Notes: generated by a model from the sequence alone, not told the origin. DNA of 64,000 nt from an uncultured Phycisphaerales bacterium (GCA_963755915.1 CAVWLP010000002.1:4160001-4224000), one strand, 5' to 3'. Counted from the stretch's first letter, positions 3,546-26,030 are shown. Numbers and translations: made by a program.

Positions 3546-4589
3546 TTACGTCAAAAGCCTCGGAGCTGAAGTGGACTCGCGAACGATCAACTCCTCGTCT
3601 AATCGTCGGCAACGCACCTCTACCGGGCCGTCGTTGCCCATTTCCCGTAAAAGCATCTCGGCGGCCACCTCGCCCATGGCTGCGGAGGGGAGACCCACCG
3701 CCGTCAGGGAAGGGATCGCCAGCGCCAGCATTGGTTCGTTGTTGAAGCAGACCAGGCTGAAATCACGTGGGACGGCCAGGCCGATGTCGTGGGCGCGGCG
3801 CATCAGCGACAGTGCCCCGTAGTGGGAATACGCCAGCACCGCGGTCGCGCCGCCTTCGATAACCATTCGCTTGAGGAACGGCTCGTAATACTGATCCCAC
3901 TCCACGCCAATCGGCAGTTTGGGGACGTCTTCGCTTGGAATTTCAAATCCCAGTTCCTCGCCCGCCTCTTCATAGGCCTGCCGGCGCGTGGCAACGCTGA
4001 TGTGAGAAGCACCGATGGTTGGATTATCGAGATAGGCGATACGCCTGTGGCCAAGGCCCACCAGATGCTCCAGGGCCTTTCGCGCTCCGCCGGCGTCATC
4101 GGAAATGACCTGCATTCCGCCGGGGCCGGCGATCCCGTCGAGGCTGACGTAGGGGACGCTGAGGTTCTGCAAGGCCGAAAGGTCCTCGGGATTGGTGGGG
4201 CCGACCGCCACCACCCCGTCAACCCGAAGGCCCGGCAGCTCGAAGGGGCGATGCCGCTGGCTCATGAACTGGACACAAATTTCGTAACCGGCCGTATCAA
4301 GGGCGGTGTTGAGCGCGCCAACCGCTTCTTCCAGCGGACCGACATGGTCGGAGGCAAGGCCGGCAAGGCCCAGGACAGCCACCAAATTGGTTTTGCTCAC
4401 GGTAAGGTTTCGGGCGGCAATGCTGGGGCGGTAATTCAGTTCGTTGGCAACCTTGAGGATCTTGCTACGGACAGCATCCGAGACGGAGAAGCGGCCATGC
4501 TTGGAATTGTTAAGCACCCGGCTGACGGTCGATTGGCTGACCGAACAGCGCTTTGCGACTTCCATGAGATTGCTGCCGGCCCTGGCCAT
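3546..4589 (-). CDS. LacI family transcriptional regulator
   Basis: N-terminal HTH (EVAKRCSVSQSTVSRVLNN...LNYRPSIAARNL) and sugar-binding domain ending LIVRESTS. Confidence 0.93.
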   Translation of the reverse strand: MARAGSNLMEVAKRCSVSQSTVSRVLNNSKHGRFSVSDAVRSKILKVANELNYRPSIAARNLTVSKTNLVAVLGLAGLASDHVGPLEEAVGALNTALDTAGYEICVQFMSQRHRPFELPGLRVDGVVAVGPTNPEDLSALQNLSVPYVSLDGIAGPGGMQVISDDAGGARKALEHLVGLGHRRIAYLDNPTIGASHISVATRRQAYEEAGEELGFEIPSEDVPKLPIGVEWDQYYEPFLKRMVIEGGATAVLAYSHYGALSLMRRAHDIGLAVPRDFSLVCFNNEPMLALAIPSLTAVGLPSAAMGEVAAEMLLREMGNDGPVEVRCRRLDEELIVRESTSAPRLLT

Positions 4590-4672: not shown

Positions 4673-7600
4673 TCAGAAAAGCCATAATTCACGCATCCCG
4701 GCGCGAGTATTGGCCGGAACGGCGGTGATGACAACCCGCACAGATCTGACCCCACCCGCCGACAATTGTAACCGATGACGGCCTGTCAGGTAGGAATTTT
4801 TGGTTTCGTCGCAAACTTGCTTCCAATCGGTCCCGTTCTTGGAGATTTGGACGGTATATCCGTAACCGGCCTTTTCTTCCCCCCATAATATTTCGATTCC
4901 GGAGAGATCCTGGGGTTTATCGAAATCGAACTGCCACCACTGGGGAAGTGACTGGTCGGCGGCGTTCCACTGCGTATATTCGTTGCCATCCGCGGCCTGG
5001 GAGGGCTTAAAGTTCTGCCACCCGGGGTCGAACGACGAGGCGGTCGCTTTGCCGAGCATTGGGATGTGTGACATCAGCAGTTCCTGAAGCTGGTCGGGGG
5101 CAATGGAGGCGGTAGGGGAGAAATCCGGCGAAGCCACGTATTGCAAAAGTGAGTGAAGCAATTGCCGCGCGGCAGGATCGGATTGCATGGAGAGAAGATC
5201 GGAGGCGCAGACAAGCAGTTTTCCAGGACCGACGCGAAGACCGAAGACCAGGCCAAGCCGATCGACGCGCTCCATGTTGTCGATGACTTCAACCTCCGGG
5301 CGAAAGTCTGGCGGCAGGTCGTTGAGGACGACCGGCTGAGAGTGAAGGGCGATGTCGAACCACTGCCAGTTGGAGTGGAACTCGGTGGGGAAATCTTTCA
5401 AGGCGGGATTGGACGGATCGCAGAGCAGGCCCATGGTGCCGGGCTTGTTGTGAAACATGGGCCAGCACCAGAAGTCGGAGGCGAAACCTCCGCCAACGGA
5501 GTGGACCAGAGGGCGCAAGCCGTCGGCGATGAGCAAGACATTTCCGCCGGCGGCGAGAGATGAGAACGCGGCATGTGTGAGGGACCGCGCGATCATTACA
5601 TTCGCCGGGGGCGTGAGATCGACGGCTGGCGCATAGACCCAGAGGGGATAGCTGGTTTGGATCGCACTGTTTTCGAGGGAGAGGTTCAAGTTAAATTGCG
5701 CGGGGGCGGGGAGAGAGGAAAGGGGAATCGTGAGGGAGCCGACATCGCGAAGTCCGCCTTGCGGGAGATCAATCGGCGGGAGTTTGCCGGAGGAGATCGT
5801 CGCGCCGGATTCGGCGGTGATTTGCCAGTCAAGGACCGCGCTGGTCAAGTCGTGTTCGCCATAATGGGCGAGCTGGATTTCAGCGGAGAAAGATTCATCG
5901 GTCGTCCAGACGTATTTCTTGAACCGGCCAAGAAGGACGATGGGGGAGCAGAATTGCCGCCATCGCTGCGGCGTAACGATTCCCTTTGAATCCATGAAAG
6001 CGTCAAGGATTCCGACAAGGGCCGTGCCCTGGCCGGGGAAATCCTGCAGGTCCAGGAGCTGGAATCCGCCGAAGTTTGGCGTGCGCAGCGCCGATTCGAT
6101 CTCCTCGCGGTAGCAGATTTCGGCTAGCGCGCCCGAGGCACGGAAGAAATCGTCCGCCTGGTCGAACATGGGCGTCGACTTGAGGCGGTCGCGAAAATGC
6201 TCCAGGTTCATGGCCCGGGTGACGCCGGTATATTTGGGGATTTCGCGGAAATCGGGATAGACCGTGTACTGGCCAACCTCATGGCCGACGACGGGGCGGG
6301 CAATGGCCGCGATGGAGGCGGAGTAGTCGGTCATGGTGTTGGGCGGGCCGTACTGGACGTGTCCATCGCGGGCGTCGAGGTCGGCAAAACTGCCGCGCAC
6401 GGGGAGCGACGGGGCCGATTCATTGGCCTTGGCCCGCGCGGAGATAAGGAAATCGTCGCCGGGAGGAAGGATGGGGTCCCAGAGAAATGCGTTGGAGCCT
6501 TGCGCGTAAAGATGGCGGGGGTCTGCGGAGCGCAGTTCGTCGACCAGCGATGCAAGCACCGCGCGGCTGCCGCGATTCTCGTTCCCCATCGTGAACATCA
6601 CGAACGAAGGATGGTTGCCGTAACATTTGAGAATGCGAATGGCCTCAGGCTCAAGGGCCTTTTTGACGCCGTCATCGAAATCGCCCCAGAAGGGAAGCTC
6701 GGGCTGCATATACATTCCGAGCTGGTCCGCGGCGGTGAAGGCCGCATCAGGCGGAACGAACGTGTGGCAGCGGATCTGGTTGATCCCGTAATCCTGGCAG
6801 GTACGGAGATATTTGACCCAGCCGGCGACGTCCATAGGCGGATATCCGGTCAGGGGAAAGACGCAGGCGTTGTGCTTGCCGCGGAGAAAAGTAGTGCGGC
6901 CGTTGATGGTGAACTGTTTTCCGGAGGAGGAGAAATCGCGCAAGCCGAACGTGATCGTGCGGGCACCCGAATAATCCCCGGCGTGGAGATCGGCGGTAAG
7001 CGTGATGAGATTGGGATGGAATTCGTCCCAGGTGACGGCGGTGGCAAGCGGAAGATTAAGCTCGGGGGAACTGGGAGTGGAGGAGAAGGATATGGAAGCG
7101 TCGTAAGGTGTCATGCCGGGAGCGGCGACGTGAATACTGACCGTGCCGGCGGCGGATCGTTCGCCCTCAATTTTCAGTTTGACGAGAACCGAATGTTTGG
7201 CTGCGCTGGGATAGACCTGGAGGTCATCGATCCAGACCGCGTCGGTGGCCTGCAGCTCGATCCGCCCGATGATGCCGTTCCAGTTGGTTTGCGTGTTGTC
7301 CGACCACTGGTGGGCTTCGGATTGCACAGGCAGCCGGGTGTTATCGACGGCAATGGTAAGCTGATGCCGGCCGGGCGTAAGATGCCCAAGCGAAAATTCC
7401 TGCGGTGTGCAGAAGATCGTCCCCTGCCCCATCGATTTTCCGTCGAGCCAGAGCTGAGTGTACTTGGTGCGCTCCAGAAAAAGGTTGATGCGCTTGTTTC
7501 GCCAGGCGTCAGGGATGTCAATGTCGTGCTGATACCAGGCGGTTCCATCGAAGCGGTAAATGCGGGTGAGCTGGCCGTTCCATCCGGGGCCTTGGATTGA

Positions 7601-16768: not shown

Positions 16769-19694
16769 TTATTTCACTACCAGACTGACAAGCTTCTTCG
16801 TCGCGTAAATCTGTTTGACCACCGTTTTGTTCGCCAGCCACGATTTAACCGATTCCGCGTCCCGCGCCGCGGTAAATATTTCTTCTTCCGAAGCCTCCGC
16901 GGCAACCGTAATCGTCCCCCGGAGCTTCCCATTCACCTGCACTGCAAGCTCCATGGTCGATTCAGCAAGCTTCGCCGGGTCAAATTTTGGCCAGGGATAG
17001 CGCGCCAGCGACGGCTGATGCCCAAGCCGCGTCCATATCTCCTCCGCCAGGTGCGGCGCGAACGGCGCCAGAAGCAAAACGAATTTCTCCGCCAGCTCCC
17101 TAGGAACTCCGCCGCTTAATCGCCCAATCTCGTTGTTCAGCTTGATCAGCTCGGCAATCGCCGTGTTAAACCGCAAACCCTCGATGTCCTCACCCACTTT
17201 TTTAATCGTCCGCTGAAGCTGGCGATCCAGGGCCTCAGGAATTCTCTCGGCAGTAATCGTCGCAATCTTATTCGCCTCCTCATCGCCGACGAGATTCCGG
17301 TAAACCGCGCTGAGAAACCGCGACATCCCCACAATATCCCGCGTATTCCACGGCTTCTGCGCCTCCAGCGGCCCCATATACATCTCATAAAGCCGAAACG
17401 TGTCCGCGCCGTAGTCCCCCACGATTTGGTCGGGGTTCACGATGTTCCCCCGGCTTTTGCTCATCTTGAAGCTCCGGGCCTCAAGGACGATGTTGGGGTC
17501 CGATTTAAGCACATACCGCTCCCCGCGCTTTTCGACGAGCTCCGCCTCGATGCGGTTCGCAACGAATTTCTGCCCGCTTGTTTTATTCGTCCCGACCAGT
17601 CGTGGCCCCTCCGCGACAGCTTCTTCCACAATATCCTCAAGCCCCGCAGCGCTGACGTTCTTCCCGTCGGCTGTCGTGAAGAGATGAAACTCCATCTCCC
17701 CCAAAATCGTCCCCTGATTCACCAGCTTGGCAAACGGTTCCGGCGTGGAAACATGCCCCAGATCAAAAAGCACCTTGTGCCAGAACCGCGCGTAAAGCAG
17801 ATGCAGCACGGCATGCTCGGCCCCGCCGACATAAAGATCGATCGGCATCCAATATTTCTCTTTTTTCGGATCGACGAAGCGCTCGGAATTCTTCGGATCG
17901 ATGAATCGAAGATAATACCAGCAGCTTCCTGCCCACTGCGGCATCGTGTTCGTCTCGCGCACCGCCGGCTGCCCGTCGAAGGTAACCCTGGCCCAATCCC
18001 TCGCCTTGCTCAGCGGCGGCTCCAGCGTGCCCGTAGGCCGGAAGTCGTCGATCTCCGGCAGCTTCACCGGAAGCTCGCTCTCAGGCACCGGCCACGGATT
18101 ATTCTCACCATCGAGGATGATCGGAAACGGCTCCCCCCAATACCGCTGCCGGCTGAAAATCCAATCCCGCAGCTTATATTTCACCGACCGCTTCCCAACC
18201 TCCTCGTCATCGAGAATCTCCGGGATTTTCTCCTTCGCCTCCTGCGTCGTCAGCCCGTTGATAGGGGGGCTGTTTACGGCGATTCCTTCCTCCTCAAACG
18301 CTTTGCCGGCAGGGGGGCTCGATTTATCCGCCGGCGCCACCACCGTCCGCATCGGCAGCTTGAATTTCGTGGCAAAGTCAAAATCCCGCTGATCATGCGC
18401 CGGCACCGCCATGATCGCCCCAGTCCCATACCCCATCAAAACATAGTCCGCGATCCAAATCGGAATCTTTTCATTGTTGACCGGGTTGACGCAAAAGCCC
18501 CGGTGAATACGCCGGTCTTATCCTTCGTTTCCGCCACCCGATCGCGCTCGGATTTCGCCGCGACCGCCTGCGCGATACGCCTCAACCGCCGACTTCTGCG
18601 CGGAGGATGTAATCCGCTCCACCAACGGATGCTCCGGCGAAAGAACCATATACGTCGCCCCAAACAGCGTATCCGGCCGCGTCGTATAAACCGTCACAAA
18701 CGGCGGATCATTTTCCTCCGCCCCGGCGGGGGGGTTGCCGGGGAGATTGCCGCCGGAGATGCTGGCGGCATCAATCTCAAAATCCACCTCCGCCCCCACG
18801 CTCCTCCCGATCCAGTTCCGCTGCATTTCCTTCAGCGATTCGGGCCAGTTCAGCTTCTCCAGATCTTCTAGCAGCCGCTCGGCAATACGCCGTGATCCGC
18901 AGCACCCATTGCCGCATCGGCTGCCGCACCACCGGGAAACCGCCCACTTCGCTCTTCCCATCGATCACCTCTTCATTCGCCAGCACCGTCCCCAGCCCCG
19001 GGCACCAGTTAACCGGAATTTCATCCATGTACGCCAGCCGCTGATCGTCCACGATCTCCCGCCGCTCCCCCTCATCGAGTTCGCGCCAAAGCCGCCCAAG
19101 CCGATTGTCCCCCAGGATCGGCTCCAGGCTCGGATCGGTCGGATTGAGATGAATCGACCCATCCGGCCCGCAAATGTAATTGTCGTTCTGCAAGCTCGTT
19201 GATCAGGTGCGAGATCGGCTTCGCCTTCTGGTCCACCGGATCGAAATAGCTGTTAAACAGCTGCAAAAAAATCCACTGCGTCCACCGGTAATAGCCCGGA
19301 TCGGTCGTATCGACTTCCCGTTCCCAGTCGTAGCTGAGCCCCAGCATCTGGATCTGCTTGCGGAAGTTGGCGATGTTCTGCTCGGTCGTGATCCGCGGGT
19401 GCACATTCTGCTTGATGGCATACTGCTCCGCCGGCAGCCCAAACGCGTCCCACCCCATCGGATGCAGCACGTTAAATCCCTTCATCCGCAGATAGCGCGC
19501 AAAGATATCGGTCGCCGTATACCCCTCCGGATGCCCCACATGCAGCCCCGCCCCGCTCGGATAAGGAAACATATCCAGCACATACGCCTTGGGCATGTTC
19601 GCCGCCTCATTCGGCTCCAGCGCTGCGAAACGACCGGTTCTGCAAGCCAATACTGCTGCCATTTCTTCTCGATGGCGGTGAAGTTGTAACCCAT
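16769..19694 (-). CDS. leuS: Leucine--tRNA ligase (several frameshifts)
   Basis: [16 protein letters not shown] start, [15 protein letters not shown] (HIGH), [15 protein letters not shown] editing domain, KMSKS, QVNGKLR C-terminus across four ORF fragments. Confidence 0.95.
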
Positions 19695-20003
19695 GCCCGC
19701 CCAATATATGCGAAATTCCCAAATTGCCCCATGGCGAACCCGCAGCCGGAGGCGAGGAGCGGTACTCCGCATTGGCCGGATGCCGTCGGGCTGGAGGCCC
19801 CACTATCAGCCGAGGGGCAAACCCTCTTCACCCCGTTTAGCCGCGCCCCGCAGGGAAGCGCTTTTCAGTGCGGAAAAAGGGGGTTCCGAGCATTAACTCG
19901 CAACTCACAACTCATAACTCGCAACCCTTCCCATTTTCCCTCAACTCCCGAGCCCCACGTTCCGATAACTACCAATGCTGAAAGTTCGAACGGAGGTACC
20001 CCT

Positions 20004-20408
20004 ATGTTGACCCTCACGCAACGCGACACAACCGCGAACGACACAACCGCCCTCCCCGACGATTCCGCAGACAGCGGCATCGAACGCCGCCGCGGCCTGA
20101 GAATCCAGCAGAACCGCCCGATCAAAGTCTTCGAGCACACCGCCGCCCGATACTTCGGCGGGCAGACCCAGGACGTCAGCTCCACCGGCCTGCGCCTCGA
20201 ATTGCCCCGCTCCATGCCCGTCCGCCCCGGCAAACTCCTCAGCATTCACGTCGGCATCGGCGCCGCCGGCCAACCGCTGGCAAATCGCAGAAACATGATC
20301 CCCGCCCGCGTCGTCTGGGTGAATCCCCCAGTCCAGCCCGAAGCCCGCACCCAGGCGGTAGGGGTGGAATTCATGGCCAGCATCGCCTCACAACTCGACG
20401 CCGCCTGA
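20004..20408 (+). CDS. PilZ domain protein
   Basis: ERRRGLR (RxxxR), DVSSTG (DxSxxG), ARVVW and GVEF motifs; GGAGG RBS before ATG 20004. Confidence 0.8.
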   Translation: MLTLTQRDTTANDTTALPDDSADSGIERRRGLRIQQNRPIKVFEHTAARYFGGQTQDVSSTGLRLELPRSMPVRPGKLLSIHVGIGAAGQPLANRRNMIPARVVWVNPPVQPEARTQAVGVEFMASIASQLDAA

Positions 20409-20487: not shown

Positions 20488-21852
20488 TCACACAGGGCAC
20501 ATCCCCACACGCCTGTACAACCGAATAGCCCCCGAAGGGTTGTTCTCCCGCACTTTAAGAGTGACCGCCGCCGCGCCCCGTTGTCGGAACGTCGCGAAAG
20601 CATGCAGCAGAAGTGCTTCGCCCAACCCGCGTCGCCGCCAATCTGGATGAACCACGAGATCCTTCACAAAAGCATTCGTCCAGCATTGCGCCACACCCAC
20701 CACAGGACCTTCGGCACACCGCGCAACGAAACAGACCGCAGGATCGAATTCCACATCCGACACGAGAGCGTCGCGCCAATGCGAAAAATCACCAACCTCC
20801 CCGCCCCCCTTGGCGTACCCGATGGTTAATAATTCATGGATTTCCGCTAAGAGGCTATTTCAAAACCCGTGTTAGTTTATGAATTCGTCGGAAACAAATC
20901 ATGCATGCGGCCAACTCGTTGTAGGCCTGCCAATGGGTCGCGGTCTTTTCGTAGCAGCTTCGCAATCGACGCCAGTTGCCGAACCATGCCATCGTGCGTT
21001 CCACGACGTAACGCACTTTTCCCAAACCGCTGCCATGCTCGCTGCCGCGCGGAGCCAGCAGGCTTTTGATCTTCAAGGCGACGACGGCGGCGATGATCCA
21101 GGGGAAGCCATATCCGCGATCGCCAACCAAAGCATCGGGTTTGCTGCGGGGACGACCTCGTGGCCCTTGAATCGGCGGAAGATTCTGGACCATTTCGAGC
21201 ACCGGCTGCTCATCGCGGATGTTGGCGGGTGTGGTGTGAACCAACAGCGGCAAGCCTTGTGCCTCCGTGATGACGTGACGTTTGCACCCGTTTTTCCTGC
21301 GATCTACGGGACTCGGCCCCGTGTGCGCCCCCAAAAATGGCGCGAACCGATTCGGAATCGACCACGGCTCGCCGCAGGTCGATCTCGCCGAGACGACCGA
21401 GCCCATTGAGCAGCAGCTGGTGCAATCGCAGCCAAACGCCGGCACGAGTCCAATCGCGGAATCGTCGCCAGACGGTCACGCCGCTGACTCCGAAAACCTC
21501 GGCTGGTAACAGGTTGTACGGCATGCCGCTCCAGAGAATGAAGATCAACGCGCGCAGACACAACCGATCGTCGGCCGGCGGACGTCCTCCTTTTTTCGAG
21601 ACGTGGTGCGGCGGCAACAATGGCTGTACTTCGTTCCAAAGTTCGTCGGGAAGCAGTTCCACTGCCATGACATCGCCTCCTTGCGATAGAATGGTCGGAG
21701 TTCATTTTACGGAAAAACACCGGTTTTGAAACAGCTTCTAAATCCCCCTCCCTGAAATCCACCAGGCCCACACCAGCCGGCCAAATCGGCGCAGCAACAG
21801 GATCGCGAAGATTGCGTCGCATAAGCAGCACCGTCGGAGGAATGGCATCCAT
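20488..21852 (-). pseudogene. GNAT N-acetyltransferase interrupted by an IS5-family element
   Basis: 5' part MDAIPPTVLLMRRNLRDP...FREGDL reads on in frame as AEIHELL once the IS and one TAA copy are removed; 3' part has VHPDWRRRGLGEALL and NPSGAIRLYRRVG. Confidence 0.8.
20851..21738 (-). mobile_element. IS5 family (IS427-like, two-ORF) insertion sequence, 888 bp
   Basis: TIRs GAGGCTATTTCAAAACC / GAAGCTGTTTCAAAACC (15/17), 3-bp TSD TAA (20848-50, 21739-41), ORFs 21210-21668 (DUF4096-like) and the ORF ending at 20855 (GDRGY, RYVVERTMAW). Confidence 0.92.
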
Positions 21853-22062
21853 GTAGGAAATCGTCCCGCGGCAACTCCTTGTCCCACACCTCAAGGCCGC
21901 ACCGAACGTCACCCGGCCAGCCATGTGCCCTCGCCGCGGAACCGAATCACCTTATACGAGATACCGACTTTTCTCGTCACCAACACCGTAACCGAAAAGA
22001 CTCTTTCCTCTCTTTTCGCTGCTTTTTTGAAATTCAACGCGATTGGAAATCAACCCCCTACT

Positions 22063-22090
22063 ACGTCCTATAATGTATGTTATGTTAAGT
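22063..22090 (+). other. XerCD dif-like recombination site
   Basis: ACGTCCTATAA-TGTATG-TTATGTTAAGT has the 11-6-11 layout; the right arm differs by one base from the E. coli XerD arm TTATGTTAAAT; AT-rich and intergenic. Confidence 0.85.
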
Positions 22091-22105
22091 TTCGTGGCAC
22101 TGGTA

Positions 22106-22930
22106 TCATTTGAGTAATCCAATCAAATCCTCCAGTTCCCACAGCCTATTTATCAATCCCGCTTCCATCGCTGGCGTCTGTTTAATGGTCGAGTGAATCC
22201 GGCACCAGTTGTAATAGGTCCAGAAAATCGCCGTCATCGCAACGTGATTCTCGAATTTCTTGCTGTGGGCGTTCGTCAGCCGCGTGTACCGCCGCACGCT
22301 CATCCGGGCGGTGAGATTCGACCGCTCAACAAAGCTGGTGGAGATATGCTTCGGATCGGGATTGCCGATGCGCGGCGTAACTTTGATGCCGATGCACTCC
22401 GGCGGGGAGTATTTGCCTTCCGCGTCTTTATCCGGGCCGTACAACTTCACCAGTTGGGCGAAATCAACCTCGCAATTGAATTGGTTAATCATCGCGCTCC
22501 AATAGGCGTGGAAGCCGTCTGTGGTGACCTGTACGCGATTCTTTAACCGCCATGCGACATCGGCGGTGATTACGTTCGCTACGCTGCCATCGCGGCCCCC
22601 TACCAGCCAAGCAACCATCAGCTTTGAATCGCTGTCGATGCAGGTCCAGGTCCAAGCATCGCCAATTCCGGCGGTGCCGCGAAGCTCCGGACGCACGTTC
22701 TTTTCTTTGCAATGAACGAAGTCCCAAAGCTCGTCAAACTGGAGACGCTTTGAATTGAGGTTGCAAACCTTGTCGTCATGGAACTGCTGGCAGGCTTCCC
22801 CAAGGTCGCGGATAAGGCGAAGGATGGTCGTTTTGGCGATACCCGTCATTCGGACGGTGCTATTGATGCTGCATCCCTCAACCAAGGCCATAATCACCCG
22901 GGACTGCTCTTGAATGCTTAACTTATTCAT
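22106..22930 (-). CDS. IS1-family DDE transposase
   Basis: N-terminal HTH (EGCSINSTVRMTGIAKTTILR), QFDELWDFV, WTWTCID, TTDGFHAY, STSFVERSNLTAR, RLTNAHSKK; stop lies inside the TIR. Confidence 0.9.
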   Translation of the reverse strand: MNKLSIQEQSRVIMALVEGCSINSTVRMTGIAKTTILRLIRDLGEACQQFHDDKVCNLNSKRLQFDELWDFVHCKEKNVRPELRGTAGIGDAWTWTCIDSDSKLMVAWLVGGRDGSVANVITADVAWRLKNRVQVTTDGFHAYWSAMINQFNCEVDFAQLVKLYGPDKDAEGKYSPPECIGIKVTPRIGNPDPKHISTSFVERSNLTARMSVRRYTRLTNAHSKKFENHVAMTAIFWTYYNWCRIHSTIKQTPAMEAGLINRLWELEDLIGLLK

Positions 22931-23013
22931 GGAAATCGGTGTAGGTACAAATTGTGGGCTTGTCAAGAATAAAACCTCTTGACTTGACCACAATTTGTCC
23001 GTACCATGCCGCC

Positions 23014-23241
23014 ATGAAACCGAAAAAGATGGGACGCCCAAGGAAGAAATCGGATGCCGTGAAAAGCTCTTGGTTAGAGGTTCGGTGCGAGGAATCAGAA
23101 CGCGAGGCGTTCCGGGCAGCGGCGGAAGCCCAAGGGCTGGGGATGAGTGCGTGGATTCGCCAATGCCTGCGCCGTGCGGCCCGTAAAGAACTTGAGGATT
23201 TAAATCTGCCGGTTGCATTTTTGGATCGTCTATCGGCTTAA
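23014..23241 (+). CDS. Small ribbon-helix-helix-like DNA-binding protein divergent from the transposase
   Basis: MKPKKMGRPRKK (AT-hook-like) then WLEVRC...FRAAAEAQGLGMSAWIRQCL, an RHH pattern; its 3' end is conserved in element 2. Confidence 0.65.
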   Translation: MKPKKMGRPRKKSDAVKSSWLEVRCEESEREAFRAAAEAQGLGMSAWIRQCLRRAARKELEDLNLPVAFLDRLSA

Positions 23242-23355
23242 CCGAATGTTCCAAGCCATGAAAAGAATCCCAAGCAAAAATCCAACGACAAAAGCAATCG
23301 CAATTACTCCAGCGATCAATTGAGATTGGGGCCAACCTTGCCTTTTGATATTCAT
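23230..23355 (-). CDS. Putative 41-aa single-TM small protein
   Basis: MNIKRQGWPQSQLIAGVIAIAFVVGFLLGILFMAWNIRLSR with GAGG RBS; below the ORF-track size cutoff. Confidence 0.4.
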   Translation of the reverse strand: MNIKRQGWPQSQLIAGVIAIAFVVGFLLGILFMAWNIRLSR

Positions 23356-24633
23356 CGCTTTTCCTCAGAAACCCTTTGGGGCGTGATCGTTTTCGGGCTT
23401 ATTCTCCTCTTTGCTGGTCTCGCATTGGTGGGAATGAGGCCGTGGTGGGCTGGCTATATTACTGTGATACTGATCGTAGACCTCGGCATCTTCGTTTTGT
23501 TTGCATATTTGGACCCCAAGGCCCATGCGCCCAGCGTCACGCCTATATCGTTTTCTGCCACGGCCAAATCGGTGACTCTCCCGCCCCCGGAAGCGGGCTG
23601 GAGATTCATTCGGTACTCTTACGTCGATTTGGACTCTGTAGGAGCCAAAAGGCGACACTTTGTCTCCGCTGCACTTTACCTGAATGTTGTGAATATTGGA
23701 ACGTCGCCCCTTACGATCCAAAATTATTGGATTGAACTCCGACCGAAAAATGGTAGTCACCAACTGCTTGATTCCGTTCCGATTGAATCTAAAAATGTTG
23801 ATCTTTATAGAGACGTGACCCCGGAGGAGATTGCGTCGATCAAGGCGAACAATCCGGACTTCGCATACATTCCGAACGCCCAACGTAAGGTGACGTTGAC
23901 CGATAAGCCGTTTAATACCGCGATAAATAATCAACCGATTGGTCCGGGCGATACGGCCAGTGGTTGGGTCTTCCTTGTTCTTAACGGGCCCACACAACCC
24001 CTCTGGGACTTTTGGTTGTGTATCCAGCCGACTGACGGAGAAGAGGTCGATGAACCGATTGCGCTTCCCAATCCACAGGAGAATCGCCCATTGTCTCCGC
24101 AGCTTGAGGTCACCGCGACTTTTCCAATTGAAGACTTGCGACAGATTCCGGTCGTAAACCAACTCGACATTTACGATGTTCCGAGGACGCTCGGAAATCA
24201 TCGCGCCGAACTTATTTCCGCGATAAATTTGCCGGAATTTCGAGGCCAGAAGATCTCGATTGGTTCTGCTCCTAATTCGGAGTGCCAGAATTTTGCATCG
24301 GAGCTTCTCGCTGCACTTAAAGACGGAGGATGGGATGCCACCAATCAGAGCTTTGTGGTGCCACCAGGTCGCGTTGGCGTAAATCTCTGGATTAGCGCTG
24401 CGGTCATCAATATGCCGATAGCTCCAAGCGCCACTGCCTTCCAAACCTTTTTGTACAAATATGGATACACGCAGGATACGACCCAAATTAATGGGTATGC
24501 TGGCATTCCTGCCGCAGAACTCAGGCTTTATGTTTATCCCGTGCTGCCCCAACTTCAACCCGCGCACCCAAACGCCGCCCGTAACAACGCCGTAGTACCG
24601 AGGTCAGTGATTCGTCTTCGTCCCATCGCTTAG
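23320..24633 (+). CDS. Element 1 cargo: membrane-anchored hypothetical protein
   Basis: Two N-terminal TM segments, beta-rich middle, C-terminal ECQNFASELLAALKDGGW domain; lower GC than the flanks. Start uncertain. Confidence 0.65.
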   Translation: MRLGPTLPFDIHRFSSETLWGVIVFGLILLFAGLALVGMRPWWAGYITVILIVDLGIFVLFAYLDPKAHAPSVTPISFSATAKSVTLPPPEAGWRFIRYSYVDLDSVGAKRRHFVSAALYLNVVNIGTSPLTIQNYWIELRPKNGSHQLLDSVPIESKNVDLYRDVTPEEIASIKANNPDFAYIPNAQRKVTLTDKPFNTAINNQPIGPGDTASGWVFLVLNGPTQPLWDFWLCIQPTDGEEVDEPIALPNPQENRPLSPQLEVTATFPIEDLRQIPVVNQLDIYDVPRTLGNHRAELISAINLPEFRGQKISIGSAPNSECQNFASELLAALKDGGWDATNQSFVVPPGRVGVNLWISAAVINMPIAPSATAFQTFLYKYGYTQDTTQINGYAGIPAAELRLYVYPVLPQLQPAHPNAARNNAVVPRSVIRLRPIA

Positions 24634-24771
24634 CTTGCCACCGATGATCCTCTCCACCATCGCCAGTGATTGCTGGGCGAAGTCCGGCGTCTCGCGACGG
24701 CGCTTGGGTTTGGGTTTGGGTTTGGACTTCTTCTTTGACTTGGCTTTCGATTTCCGTACTTTCGCTGGCAT
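24604..24771 (-). CDS. Small basic 55-aa protein of the element
   Basis: MPAKVRKSKAKSKKKSKPKPKPKRRRETPDFAQQSLAMVERIIGGKLSDGTKTNH; the C-terminal half recurs in element 2. Confidence 0.6.
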   Translation of the reverse strand: MPAKVRKSKAKSKKKSKPKPKPKRRRETPDFAQQSLAMVERIIGGKLSDGTKTNH

Positions 24772-24856
24772 ACGGAGAATCTTTGCAGGTAATCCCCCTC
24801 ATGTCAATGTCCCTCCAAAATGTGGACACCGCAAACGATACCAGTACCAGTTTCGT

Positions 24857-26030
24857 GGTACTGGTATCATTTGAGTAAATCGAAATGCGCAAAGAGCTTG
24901 AGGATTTGAATCTGCCGGTGGCGTTTCTGGAAAGGTTATCGGCGTAACCGCGCAAAGCCATTCCAAGGCGAAACTAATGCGGGCAAGCCCGAAATCCCAT
25001 AGGCTCAGAACGAAGGATCGTTCCAGTAACGAAGTAAAACGCATCCTTCGCGATCCTCGCGTGACGCTGGCAGTGGAAGCAGTGCGGGGCCTAAATGTTT
25101 TTCGGTGGCTGGTGGGAATCTGTGAGGCCATCGGCTTAACGCTTCCCCAAATATTTCCCGACCCTAAATGCGAAGATCATCGAAAAGAGCCACGTGTTGA
25201 TAACGACCATTTCGCGATGCCCGATACCTCGGAAGATCGGAAAATCGAGCGTGGAGATAGGCAAATCTACTGGCTCAAGCGAGGCAGCCATGCGACATTC
25301 GCTGTGGCGATAGTGTGCAATATCTATGGTCCGCTTAATCCCGACATAAACACAAGCGCATCGGTCATTGAGGGCATCTTCCTCGGTGTGTGCCTTATCT
25401 TCGAAATACTGGCAGCGTGGCGTGAGAAACAAATTAGTCGGCTTCGCGAACAGCGCCAAAACAAAAAAGATCAAGCACACGCAGCCGAGACGAAGTCGCT
25501 GCGTAGCGAGATCGCCGCAACTTCTAAGACGCTTGAAGAATCGAAGGCCGGACGATACGTGGACCTGGAAATGCGAAAAAAAATCAAAGAAGTGCTTTCT
25601 AAGTACATCGCGCAAAAGCAGGACTATATTGTTCGCGTTTACGTAAAAGACGCGGAGGCTCTGGGTTTTGCCGCCGACATAGATGAGACTCTTAGAGACT
25701 GCGGCTGGGAAGGCGAATCCGATCCGACGTTCAACAATCCGGATTTCGACAGAGGGGTTTCTATGTCCTAACAATTGGCCGACATGATAACTGCCGGGCC
25801 GGGCGGCAGGCCGATATATAGCCCTCCCGGTTACGCTCTGAAAGAGGCATTTGAAAAAGTTGGAATAAAGGTGTCCGCAATGCCAGTCTGGCGCGACGAA
25901 AGCGTCCCCTCGCACCACGTTGCGATCAACGTGGCGCAAAGCCCTACTAACGGCGTCTGGTCCCGTTGCTGAGTTTCCCCCCGATAACCCTCTCCACCAT
26001 CGCCAGCGATTGCTGGGCGAAGTCCGGCGC
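24857..26030 (-). mobile_element. Internally deleted, non-autonomous relative of element 1 (element 2); far end not clearly found
   Basis: Starts with TIR GGTACTGGTATCATTTG right after the shared 8-bp target; keeps the transposase's last codons, the RHH 3' end (24885-24947) and the basic-protein 3' half (about 25947-26028). Confidence 0.75.
25217..25972 (+). CDS. Element 2 cargo: membrane-anchored hypothetical protein with one in-frame TAA at 25769-25771
   Basis: ORFs 24977-25771 and 25775-25972 are in the same frame; TM segments, coiled coil, EALGFAADIDETLRDCGW domain. Confidence 0.55.

Follow-up and report, generated by a model that had tools for sequence, protein, structure and literature searches.

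The stretch of DNA analysed here, 64,000 nucleotides from an uncultured Phycisphaerales bacterium (GCA_963755915.1 CAVWLP010000002.1:4160001-4224000; referred to as the window), contains the chromosomal dif site of its host and, directly beside it, an intact transposon of the IS1 family (element 1) followed by a decayed relative (element 2). We have found that elements of this kind recur in the same position at other dif sites, and we conclude, with a probability of roughly 85%, that cargo-bearing IS1-family DDE transposons preferentially transpose to a point 5 bp past the XerD arm of the chromosomal dif. An initial annotation of the window had proposed an IS1-type transposase that is guided to dif and builds an array there. 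The dif-like site, the two copies of AGTTTCGT, element 1 and the similarly oriented terminal inverted repeat (TIR) of element 2 all lie where it had placed them. The features that carry the argument are as follows.

22063–22090, + strand: chromosomal dif of the 11-6-11 form, ACGTCCTATAA-TGTATG-TTATGTTAAGT
22063–22073, 22074–22079 and 22080–22090, + strand: XerC arm, central region and XerD arm of dif, respectively
22088–22095, no strand: target-site duplication copy 1, AGTTTCGT, comprising the final 3 nt of the XerD arm and 5 nt beyond
22096–24848, − strand: element 1, an intact 2,753-bp IS1-family cargo element (transporter insertion sequence, IS) with a TIR pair and identical 8-bp flanks
22096–22120, + strand: dif-proximal TIR, GGCACTGGTATCATTTGAGTAATCC, overlapping the transposase stop codon
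22106–22930, − strand: IS1-family DDE transposase, 274 aa, a single open reading frame (ORF) transcribed toward dif
24824–24848, − strand: dif-distal TIR of element 1, reverse complement GGTACTGGTATCGTTTGCGGTGTCC
24849–24856, no strand: target-site duplication copy 2, AGTTTCGT, which doubles as the spacer between elements 1 and 2

The TIRs of element 1 (left GGCACTGGTATC..., right GGTACTGGTATC... as the reverse complement) are about 25 nt long and begin GG[CT]ACTGG. This repeat occurs at only three places in the host genome, the two ends of element 1 and the start of element 2. The GC content of element 1 is 0.517, against 0.59–0.60 in its neighbourhood.

Homologous loci were chosen by transposase similarity alone (about 45–68% identity), 80 from species-representative genomes and 80 from metagenomes; 32 homologues had been aligned before the loci were collected, and homologues at 65–86% identity to the window transposase are represented in the survey by one short contig (L081, 68%). 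In scans of these 160 loci, 14 matches were obtained for a XerD-type arm with an IS1-type end after it and 22 for the dif core, in 13 of which the repeat GGTAGTGGGTCAG... starts exactly 5 nt past the arm. Altogether the TIR lies exactly 5 nt past a TTATGTnnnnn arm in 17 loci, which represent 12 distinct sites: L037, L043 (= L093, L094, L158), L086, L089 (= L092), L095, L108, L114, L115, L116 (= L118, added to the set with the arm TTATGTCGCCT), L125, L134 and L145. The full dif form, ACTTCCGATAA-N6-TTATGTAAACT, is present at 11 of the 12, the remaining site, L089, having the XerD arm only. A further locus, L109 (= L059), shows the same 5-nt spacing from a degenerate arm, ATATGTCAACA. The genomes from which L043 and L037 come each have a single match to the dif pattern.

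Both ends of the element, that is, a repeat pair with identical or one-mismatch 8-bp flanks, could be defined in 87 of 161 loci, giving 79 unique elements of 1.4–5.7 kb, all of which carry cargo. Among the 158 flanks of these elements, 11-nt TTATGT arms occur at offset 5 in eight, where 0.04 are expected; all other offsets together give three, and a control with the hexamer reversed gives one. This comparison, which the initial annotation had called for, supports its reading. Insertion could in principle have been random, with elements surviving in a tolerant terminus and their adjacency to dif being a coincidence or the outcome of purifying selection elsewhere. This would fit the variability of the XerD-side flank of dif among relatives and the presence of other mobile DNA on the XerC side (an IS5-family gene and a 140-bp repeat), but the spacing of 5 nt is identical at 16 different full dif sites and two half-sites, the count at offset 5 far exceeds expectation, and selection cannot fix a single-base register. 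We regard such an origin as highly improbable.

In every two-ended dif-type case the duplication takes in the final 3 nt of the XerD arm and the 5 nt that follow; this geometry was checked at both ends in L043, L086, L089, L108, L114, L116, L125, the window and the congener G011. The elements thus share one register with respect to the XerD arm and one 8-bp stagger, they leave dif intact, they occur in both orientations and they use the same site again. That they abut dif in arrays is also typical of integrative mobile elements exploiting Xer (IMEX), such as CTX-phi, TLC and the gonococcal island (GGI), and islands integrated at dif by XerCD recombination might have been suspected here. However, there is no second dif-like site at any far junction, the elements are bounded by TIRs and identical 8-bp direct repeats and encode a DDE transposase, and their junction is 5 nt past the arm, whereas Xer strand exchange takes place in the central region. 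Integration by XerCD accordingly has very little probability.

The site at 22063–22090 is a genuine chromosomal dif. The motif has one match in the 6.63-Mb, three-contig genome even when up to seven mismatches are allowed. A 216-nt probe ending in dif matched, in its dif part, once in each of 18 relatives, and all 18 of their dif loci (L181–L198) contain one dif-like site each. The XerC-side flank is syntenic with window 17,000–20,400 in 8 of the 18, and the XerD-side flank is not conserved. The host genome has a xerD gene scoring above the curated cut-off; its best XerC-like gene (C2:3827107-3828010) is split over three frames in this assembly. Within the window the GC skew changes from plus to minus at about 14–15 kb, some 8 kb left of dif, and genome-wide it is noisy. 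No RNA genes or tRNAs were found around dif by Rfam and tRNA scans.

The XerC side of dif holds mobile DNA of other kinds. An IS4/IS5-type transposase gene lies about 400 bp from dif (20855–21668, − strand) in two overlapping frames (DUF4096, E = 2e-21; DDE_Tnp_1, E = 6e-14), and its frame break may be programmed or an assembly indel. Directly left of dif, at about 21880–22020, is a repeat of ~ 140 bp with 19 matches in the host genome and 19 in the congener G001 at 76–84% identity; it has no Rfam match and resembles a miniature inverted-repeat transposable element (MITE) or other dispersed repeat.

Closer relatives of the window bear the same mark. The repeat GG[CT]ACTGGTAT is found at +5 from the dif sites of 3 of the 18 relatives, G011, G006 and G005, and a degenerate IS1-type end at +5 makes G003 a possible fourth congener. 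The 5-nt spacers differ, being tgtgc in G011, ttcaa in G006, tatgt in G005 and ttcgt in the window. The element in G011 is 1,729 bp long with AGTTGTGC on both flanks, and compared with the window it has a 75%-identical transposase fragment and a 90%-identical ribbon-helix-helix (RHH) gene. To the right of dif, pieces of element genes are present in G011, G006, G010 and G008. In an even sample of 121 genomes of the family, G538, from another genus, shows the same 5-nt spacing though gaps of 3–11 were allowed, and here the other type of element end faces dif. In the window's lineage, the 5-nt geometry is therefore seen in three and possibly four congeners and in one genome of another genus. Some relatives have dif at the same syntenic locus without an IS1-type repeat beside it. 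From these comparisons the +5 register seems to have been struck repeatedly by different DNA. The first 5 nt after the XerD arm (ttcat) are common to G010, G007, G008 and G003, which diverge fully from +6, and a longer right flank of dif is common only to G012 and G004.

Element 2 adjoins the second copy of the duplication, and its parts are as follows.

24857–26030, − strand: element 2, a decayed relative, with its TIR at 24857–24878 in the same orientation as element 1
about 24880–24947: tail of the RHH gene of element 2
24977–25771 and 25775–25972: cargo ORFs of element 2, which differ from the cargo of element 1
25989–26029: fragment of the small-protein gene of element 2

Only three patches are common to the two elements: the TIR, the 3′ end of the RHH gene (24891–24919) and part of the small-protein gene (25989–26029). 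Neither a transposase nor a right end is present in element 2. Its 264-aa ORF has no Pfam or PADLOC match, and Atlas gave only weak leads; right of dif in G008 lies a relative with 36% identity to this ORF. The 'palindrome' that had been remarked on at the junction is the right repeat, the 8 bp and the left repeat, and nothing more. Because a tandem of this sort might be one element misassembled, the junction was compared with short-read Logan contigs from four public runs of one study, possibly the source samples. Contig X1 record 5 spans the junction of the two elements without mismatch (24629–25091), and the junction of dif with element 1 is spanned, likewise without mismatch, by X2 record 8 (21978–22134) and X3 record 16 (21800–24448, no gaps). 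The tandem is thus no artefact confined to this assembly. The assembly does differ from the short-read contigs, which carry insertions of 1–2 nt at 25932, 26075 and 26343, in or after element 2; it probably contains small indel errors, and with the XerC-like gene also split in three, frameshifts in it are to be read with care. These indels are what could be said for misassembly, whereas the spanned junctions, the different cargo of the two elements and the recurrence of the tandem form in L125 and L037 leave it with a negligible likelihood.

Arrays with decayed distal copies recur, being found in L125, L037, L093, L086 and L116 as well as in the window. In L125 three elements stand in a row with the separators ACTGATGT, ACTGATGT and ACTGTTGT, and only the dif-proximal one has a transposase gene. 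L037 is an array of two elements, and in L093, L086 and L116 repeat-like remnants lie directly past the distal duplication. At 10 distinct sites (the window, L043, L086, L089, L109, L114, L095, L115, L145 and L037) the transposase gene is directed toward dif and at four (L108, L116, L125 and L134) away from it, showing that orientation relative to dif is not fixed. The polar array that had been envisaged, with the newest copy beside dif, is supported by the five other loci, with the correction that orientation relative to dif is variable.

Several observations weigh against a preference for dif, or limit its reach. Over the 161 loci, 52 were classed as 'other' and 23 as 'promoter-type', compared with 18 as dif-type and 68 as undetermined. 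L129 belongs to the main clade of dif-type transposases described below and lies at an unrelated site, and L008 has a XerD-like arm at 3 nt instead of 5, without a XerC arm. The dif geometry is found in 1 of 401 genomes of the phylum of L043, that one being the centre itself, and in 2 of 121 genomes of the window's family; both scans looked for exact patterns, in collections with many incomplete genomes. The octamer that separates the two elements of L037, CCTTATGA, matches the dif-adjacent octamer CCATAAGG not as a direct repeat but as its reverse complement, with one mismatch (4322–4329 and 6713–6720, compared on one strand), which possibly reflects an inversion or a different history. Finally, the element is present once in the host genome, which therefore offers no sample of the element's range of targets. 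Its IS1-family paralogues in that genome, at about 50% identity, have ends with neither dif nor the shared repeat and tell nothing about the target of element 1. Taken over all samples, the dif geometry is rare in broad collections of genomes and recurrent wherever dif-type lineages of the subfamily occur.

The geometry suggests how such insertions might proceed. Strand transfer would be staggered by 8 bp, with one cut within the XerD arm, 3 nt from its outer edge, and the other 5 nt beyond that edge. With the cuts staggered across this edge, insertion and repair would regenerate the site, duplicating AGT+TTCGT in the window and restoring a complete dif, and the next element could then insert between the surviving dif and the resident copy. 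Survival of the target would in this way lead to a polar tandem array in which the dif-distal members decay, and we infer that dif serves the elements as a harmless 'safe harbour'.

As to what is recognised, the XerC arm is dispensable and the XerD half-site alone is usable (L089 and L109), and target capture would appear to be positioned by this half-site. The landmark that we favour, while giving it somewhat less than an even chance, is the XerD protein bound to its arm and read by the transposase or its transpososome. It is favoured since the arm's outer half differs widely from one used site to another (TAAGT, AAACT, CAAAT, GAACT, AACCT and CGCCT), and XerD is known to read such arms, and since the inner TTATGT is far too frequent to explain a concentration at dif. 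The transposase, or another DNA-binding protein of the element, might instead read the DNA of the XerD arm directly, without XerD protein, a reading we consider rather doubtful but substantial. It would agree with the use of sites that have the XerD arm and lack the XerC arm, and with the invariance of TTATGT at the 16 full dif sites; against it are the wide variation of the outer half and the thousands of TTATGT hexamers expected per genome, set beside insertions concentrated at a single dif. XerD binds its half-site alone, and for this reason the use of half-sites does not separate guidance by the protein from direct reading of the DNA. A complex prediction for the window transposase (as an alignment) with the host XerD gave no answer (score 0.00) and speaks neither for nor against XerD protein as the landmark.

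A second target pattern emerged from the same 158 flanks. The motif GT[CTA]AA ends exactly 15 nt from the TIR in 20 of them and at 16 nt in four more, where ~ 0.5 are expected per offset. In the outward direction it reads as a −35 box, TTGACx, which a −10-like hexamer often follows at 17–18 nt. The 15-nt loci are L012, L021, L024–L026, L029, L034, L045, L052, L060, L069, L074, L088, L100, L117, L119, L133, L135, L153 and L155, and the genes past promoter-type flanks include lexA (L100), rpsO (L026), rplU (L069) and rpsT (L105, a 16-nt case). Judged by these motifs, the promoter-type elements seem to insert ~ 15 bp upstream of host promoters; they are scattered over the transposase tree. We also considered whether the 'GTCAA' flanks are themselves old elements, and rejected this, as tblastx of the outer flanks against interior element ends gave one match in 174 flanks. 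The fixed 15 nt suggests that these transposases can measure from a short motif, which is a further point for direct reading of DNA at dif. Both targets could also have a common basis, and we put forward tentatively, as the less probable side of the matter, that a minimal IS1-type transposase without Tn7-like selectors might be steered by a DNA-bound protein of the host, XerD in the dif-linked lineages and elsewhere maybe the transcription machinery at −35/UP regions. If this steering were true, the large subfamily would be a set of 'landmark-guided' transposons in soil bacteria, and a second, independent invention of dif homing beside that of the IS1202 family.

The transposase of element 1 matches the NCBIfam model NF033558 (IS1 family transposase) with E = 1e-14 and 55 bits, below the 100-bit cut-off, and itself has no Pfam match. 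In the homologue search 7,989 of 8,000 scored candidates pass at E ≤ 0.001, and many of the best-listed homologues (54–72% identity) carry PF03400 or the source name 'IS1 family transposase'. Together, the sub-cut-off match and the PF03400-bearing homologues identify the window transposase as a divergent member of the IS1 family. TIRs with an 8-bp duplication, as expected of the family, are found in the window and in the 87 loci with two defined ends. The classical IS1 organisation is not: element 1 is 2,753 bp long with a single transposase ORF of 274 aa and three further ORFs. IS1 members with a single ORF are listed in ISfinder.

In a FastTree phylogeny of 138 transposases, most dif-type rows fall in one clade of 18 rows with a support of 99. 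It comprises 11 dif-type, four undetermined and three 'other' rows, two of the last being the identical L109 and L059 with their degenerate arm. L086 and L116 are near this clade and the window transposase is elsewhere in the tree. Constraining all dif-type transposases to one clade is not rejected by an approximately unbiased (AU) test (p-AU = 0.45), and independent origins of dif targeting are therefore not claimed. One position stands out in the alignment. Residue 187, in P-[K/R]-IGNPDPKH (alignment column 197; codon at window 22370–22372), is K or R throughout the 15 dif-type rows and in 7 of 72 other determinable rows, a count inflated by kinship and to be taken as a lead only; most non-dif rows have I, V or L, and two of the seven exceptions are again L109 and L059. 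Residue 187 is a candidate for a target-selection residue, and this too would favour a transposase that reads the arm itself.

Almost every element of the subfamily has, at its transposase-upstream end, a gene for a small basic protein of about 80 aa (55 aa in the window). This gene lies within the first 60–350 nt of most elements, in the position that InsA occupies in IS1. The consensus of the protein is ...KRPRDPNQLAxxIVDxATG...GRLGGLKGGKARAxxLSxxxRxEIAxKAAxARW, and the version in L043 matches no Pfam family. The 55-aa protein is a short form of this hallmark protein, similar short forms being present in L036 and L074. A zinc-ribbon ORF is also frequent in the subfamily. Both were considered as specificity factors and rejected, as they occur in dif-type and non-dif elements alike; the small accessory protein that had been suggested as a guide is accordingly not by itself the factor that specifies dif.

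The remaining features of element 1 are as follows.

22931–23013, no strand: intergenic region from which the transposase and RHH genes diverge, containing an inverted repeat and TTGAC boxes
23014–23241, + strand: RHH protein, 75 aa (Pfam NikA-like PF21983, E = 9e-7; RHH_1 weak)
23320–24633, + strand: cargo ORF, 437 aa, with a hydrophobic N-terminus and an uncertain start codon
24604–24771, − strand: small basic protein, 55 aa, reading inward from the dif-distal end

Within the intergenic region, at 22940–23005, the inverted repeat GGTACAAATTGTGG ... CCACAATTTGTCCGTACC surrounds two TTGAC boxes and, from its arrangement, is likely to be an operator for the RHH protein; its outer halves faintly resemble element ends. 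The 437-aa cargo ORF has no Pfam or PADLOC match and only weak Atlas leads, and a 61%-identical N-terminal fragment of it lies right of dif in G006. Cargo varies among dif-type elements. The elements of the main dif clade all have as cargo proteins of about 290–360 aa with a weak similarity to proteasome subunits (N-terminal nucleophile, Ntn, hydrolases; PF00227, best E = 4e-6) (L043 5737–6825, L108 6761–7777, L125 6795–7736, and also L089 and L114). Their genes lie next to one element end and are convergent with the transposase gene, and those of L043 and L108 have no PADLOC match.

Classical IS1 is 768 bp long and free of cargo, makes its transposase from insA and insB′ through a −1 frameshift, and prefers AT-rich targets only loosely. 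The present elements resemble it in their homologous DDE transposase, in TIRs that start GGT, in a duplication of 8–9 bp and in a small DNA-binding-type ORF upstream of the catalytic one; unlike it they span 1.4–5.7 kb, encode the transposase in a single ORF, carry cargo and, in a subset, are site-specific. Tn7 uses TnsABC with the target selector TnsD/TniQ, inserts in one orientation and has a target immunity that prevents tandem arrays. Like Tn7 at attTn7, the elements insert at a fixed distance from a conserved, protein-recognised site and leave it undamaged, but the four ORFs of element 1 gave no Pfam or NCBIfam match to TnsB-, TnsC- or TniQ-type genes, which are thus absent from its 2.75 kb, and arrays are common. 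IMEX elements, which enter the chromosome through XerCD recombination and have dif-like sites at their flanks, are similar in that mobile DNA piles up in arrays at dif, and different in that the present elements have TIRs, 8-bp direct repeats and a DDE transposase, with a single dif motif in the host genome.

In the literature searched, which did not extend to the supplementary insertion lists of the IS1202 papers, homing to dif or other Xer sites was found for the IS1202 family only and not for the IS1 family; a paper on a Tn7-like element that mentions XerD deals with a XerC-like recombinase, not with targeting. Our results point to dif-homing transposition in the IS1 family as belonging to a previously undescribed transposon group. 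Such homing would explain why the DNA on the XerD flank of dif varies in these genomes, and dif may be a general safe harbour and gathering place for passenger genes in uncultured soil phyla. Since dif is present in almost every bacterium, a compact system with a single transposase is also a possible tool for site-specific integration.

The closest parallel is the IS1202 family, so far the one family described, in the literature searched, as homing to Xer sites, by a mechanism that is unknown. There, the ISAba32/ISAjo2 subgroup is reported to insert 5 bp from the XerC arm in one orientation with a 5-bp duplication and a transposase of ~ 441 aa (Harmer, Pong & Hall 2023, PMC10132070), and the family to make repeats of 5–6 bp with the left end always at the XerC arm; tandem ISKpn21 copies at dif have the same direct repeat between them, the mechanism being speculative (Siguier et al., bioRxiv 10.1101/2022.12.17.520857). 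It has been suggested that the elements interact with bound Xer protein (PMC10132070; bioRxiv 10.1101/2022.12.17.520857), and the subgroup's transposase, of about 440–470 aa, is described in the paper as going with Tn7 TnsB-like ends. As far as these accounts go, the two groups agree in that an IS inserts ~ 5 bp from a Xer site, including the chromosomal dif, leaves the site intact and stacks in tandem, and only the 5-bp distance is common to our elements and the subgroup's insertion criterion. In place of the XerC side, a fixed orientation and a duplication of 5–6 bp, the window type has the XerD side, both orientations and a duplication of 8 bp, 3 nt of which lie in the arm. Its 274-aa transposase is of the IS1 type, set apart from TnpAjo2 by length and by the IS1 model and not by a direct alignment. 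Passenger genes are the rule in it, and its hosts are soil Acidobacteriota and the window's lineage, whereas those of the IS1202 subgroup are Acinetobacter or enterobacteria. A second, unrelated family that homes to dif from the XerD side offers a natural comparison for what is recognised at the Xer site.

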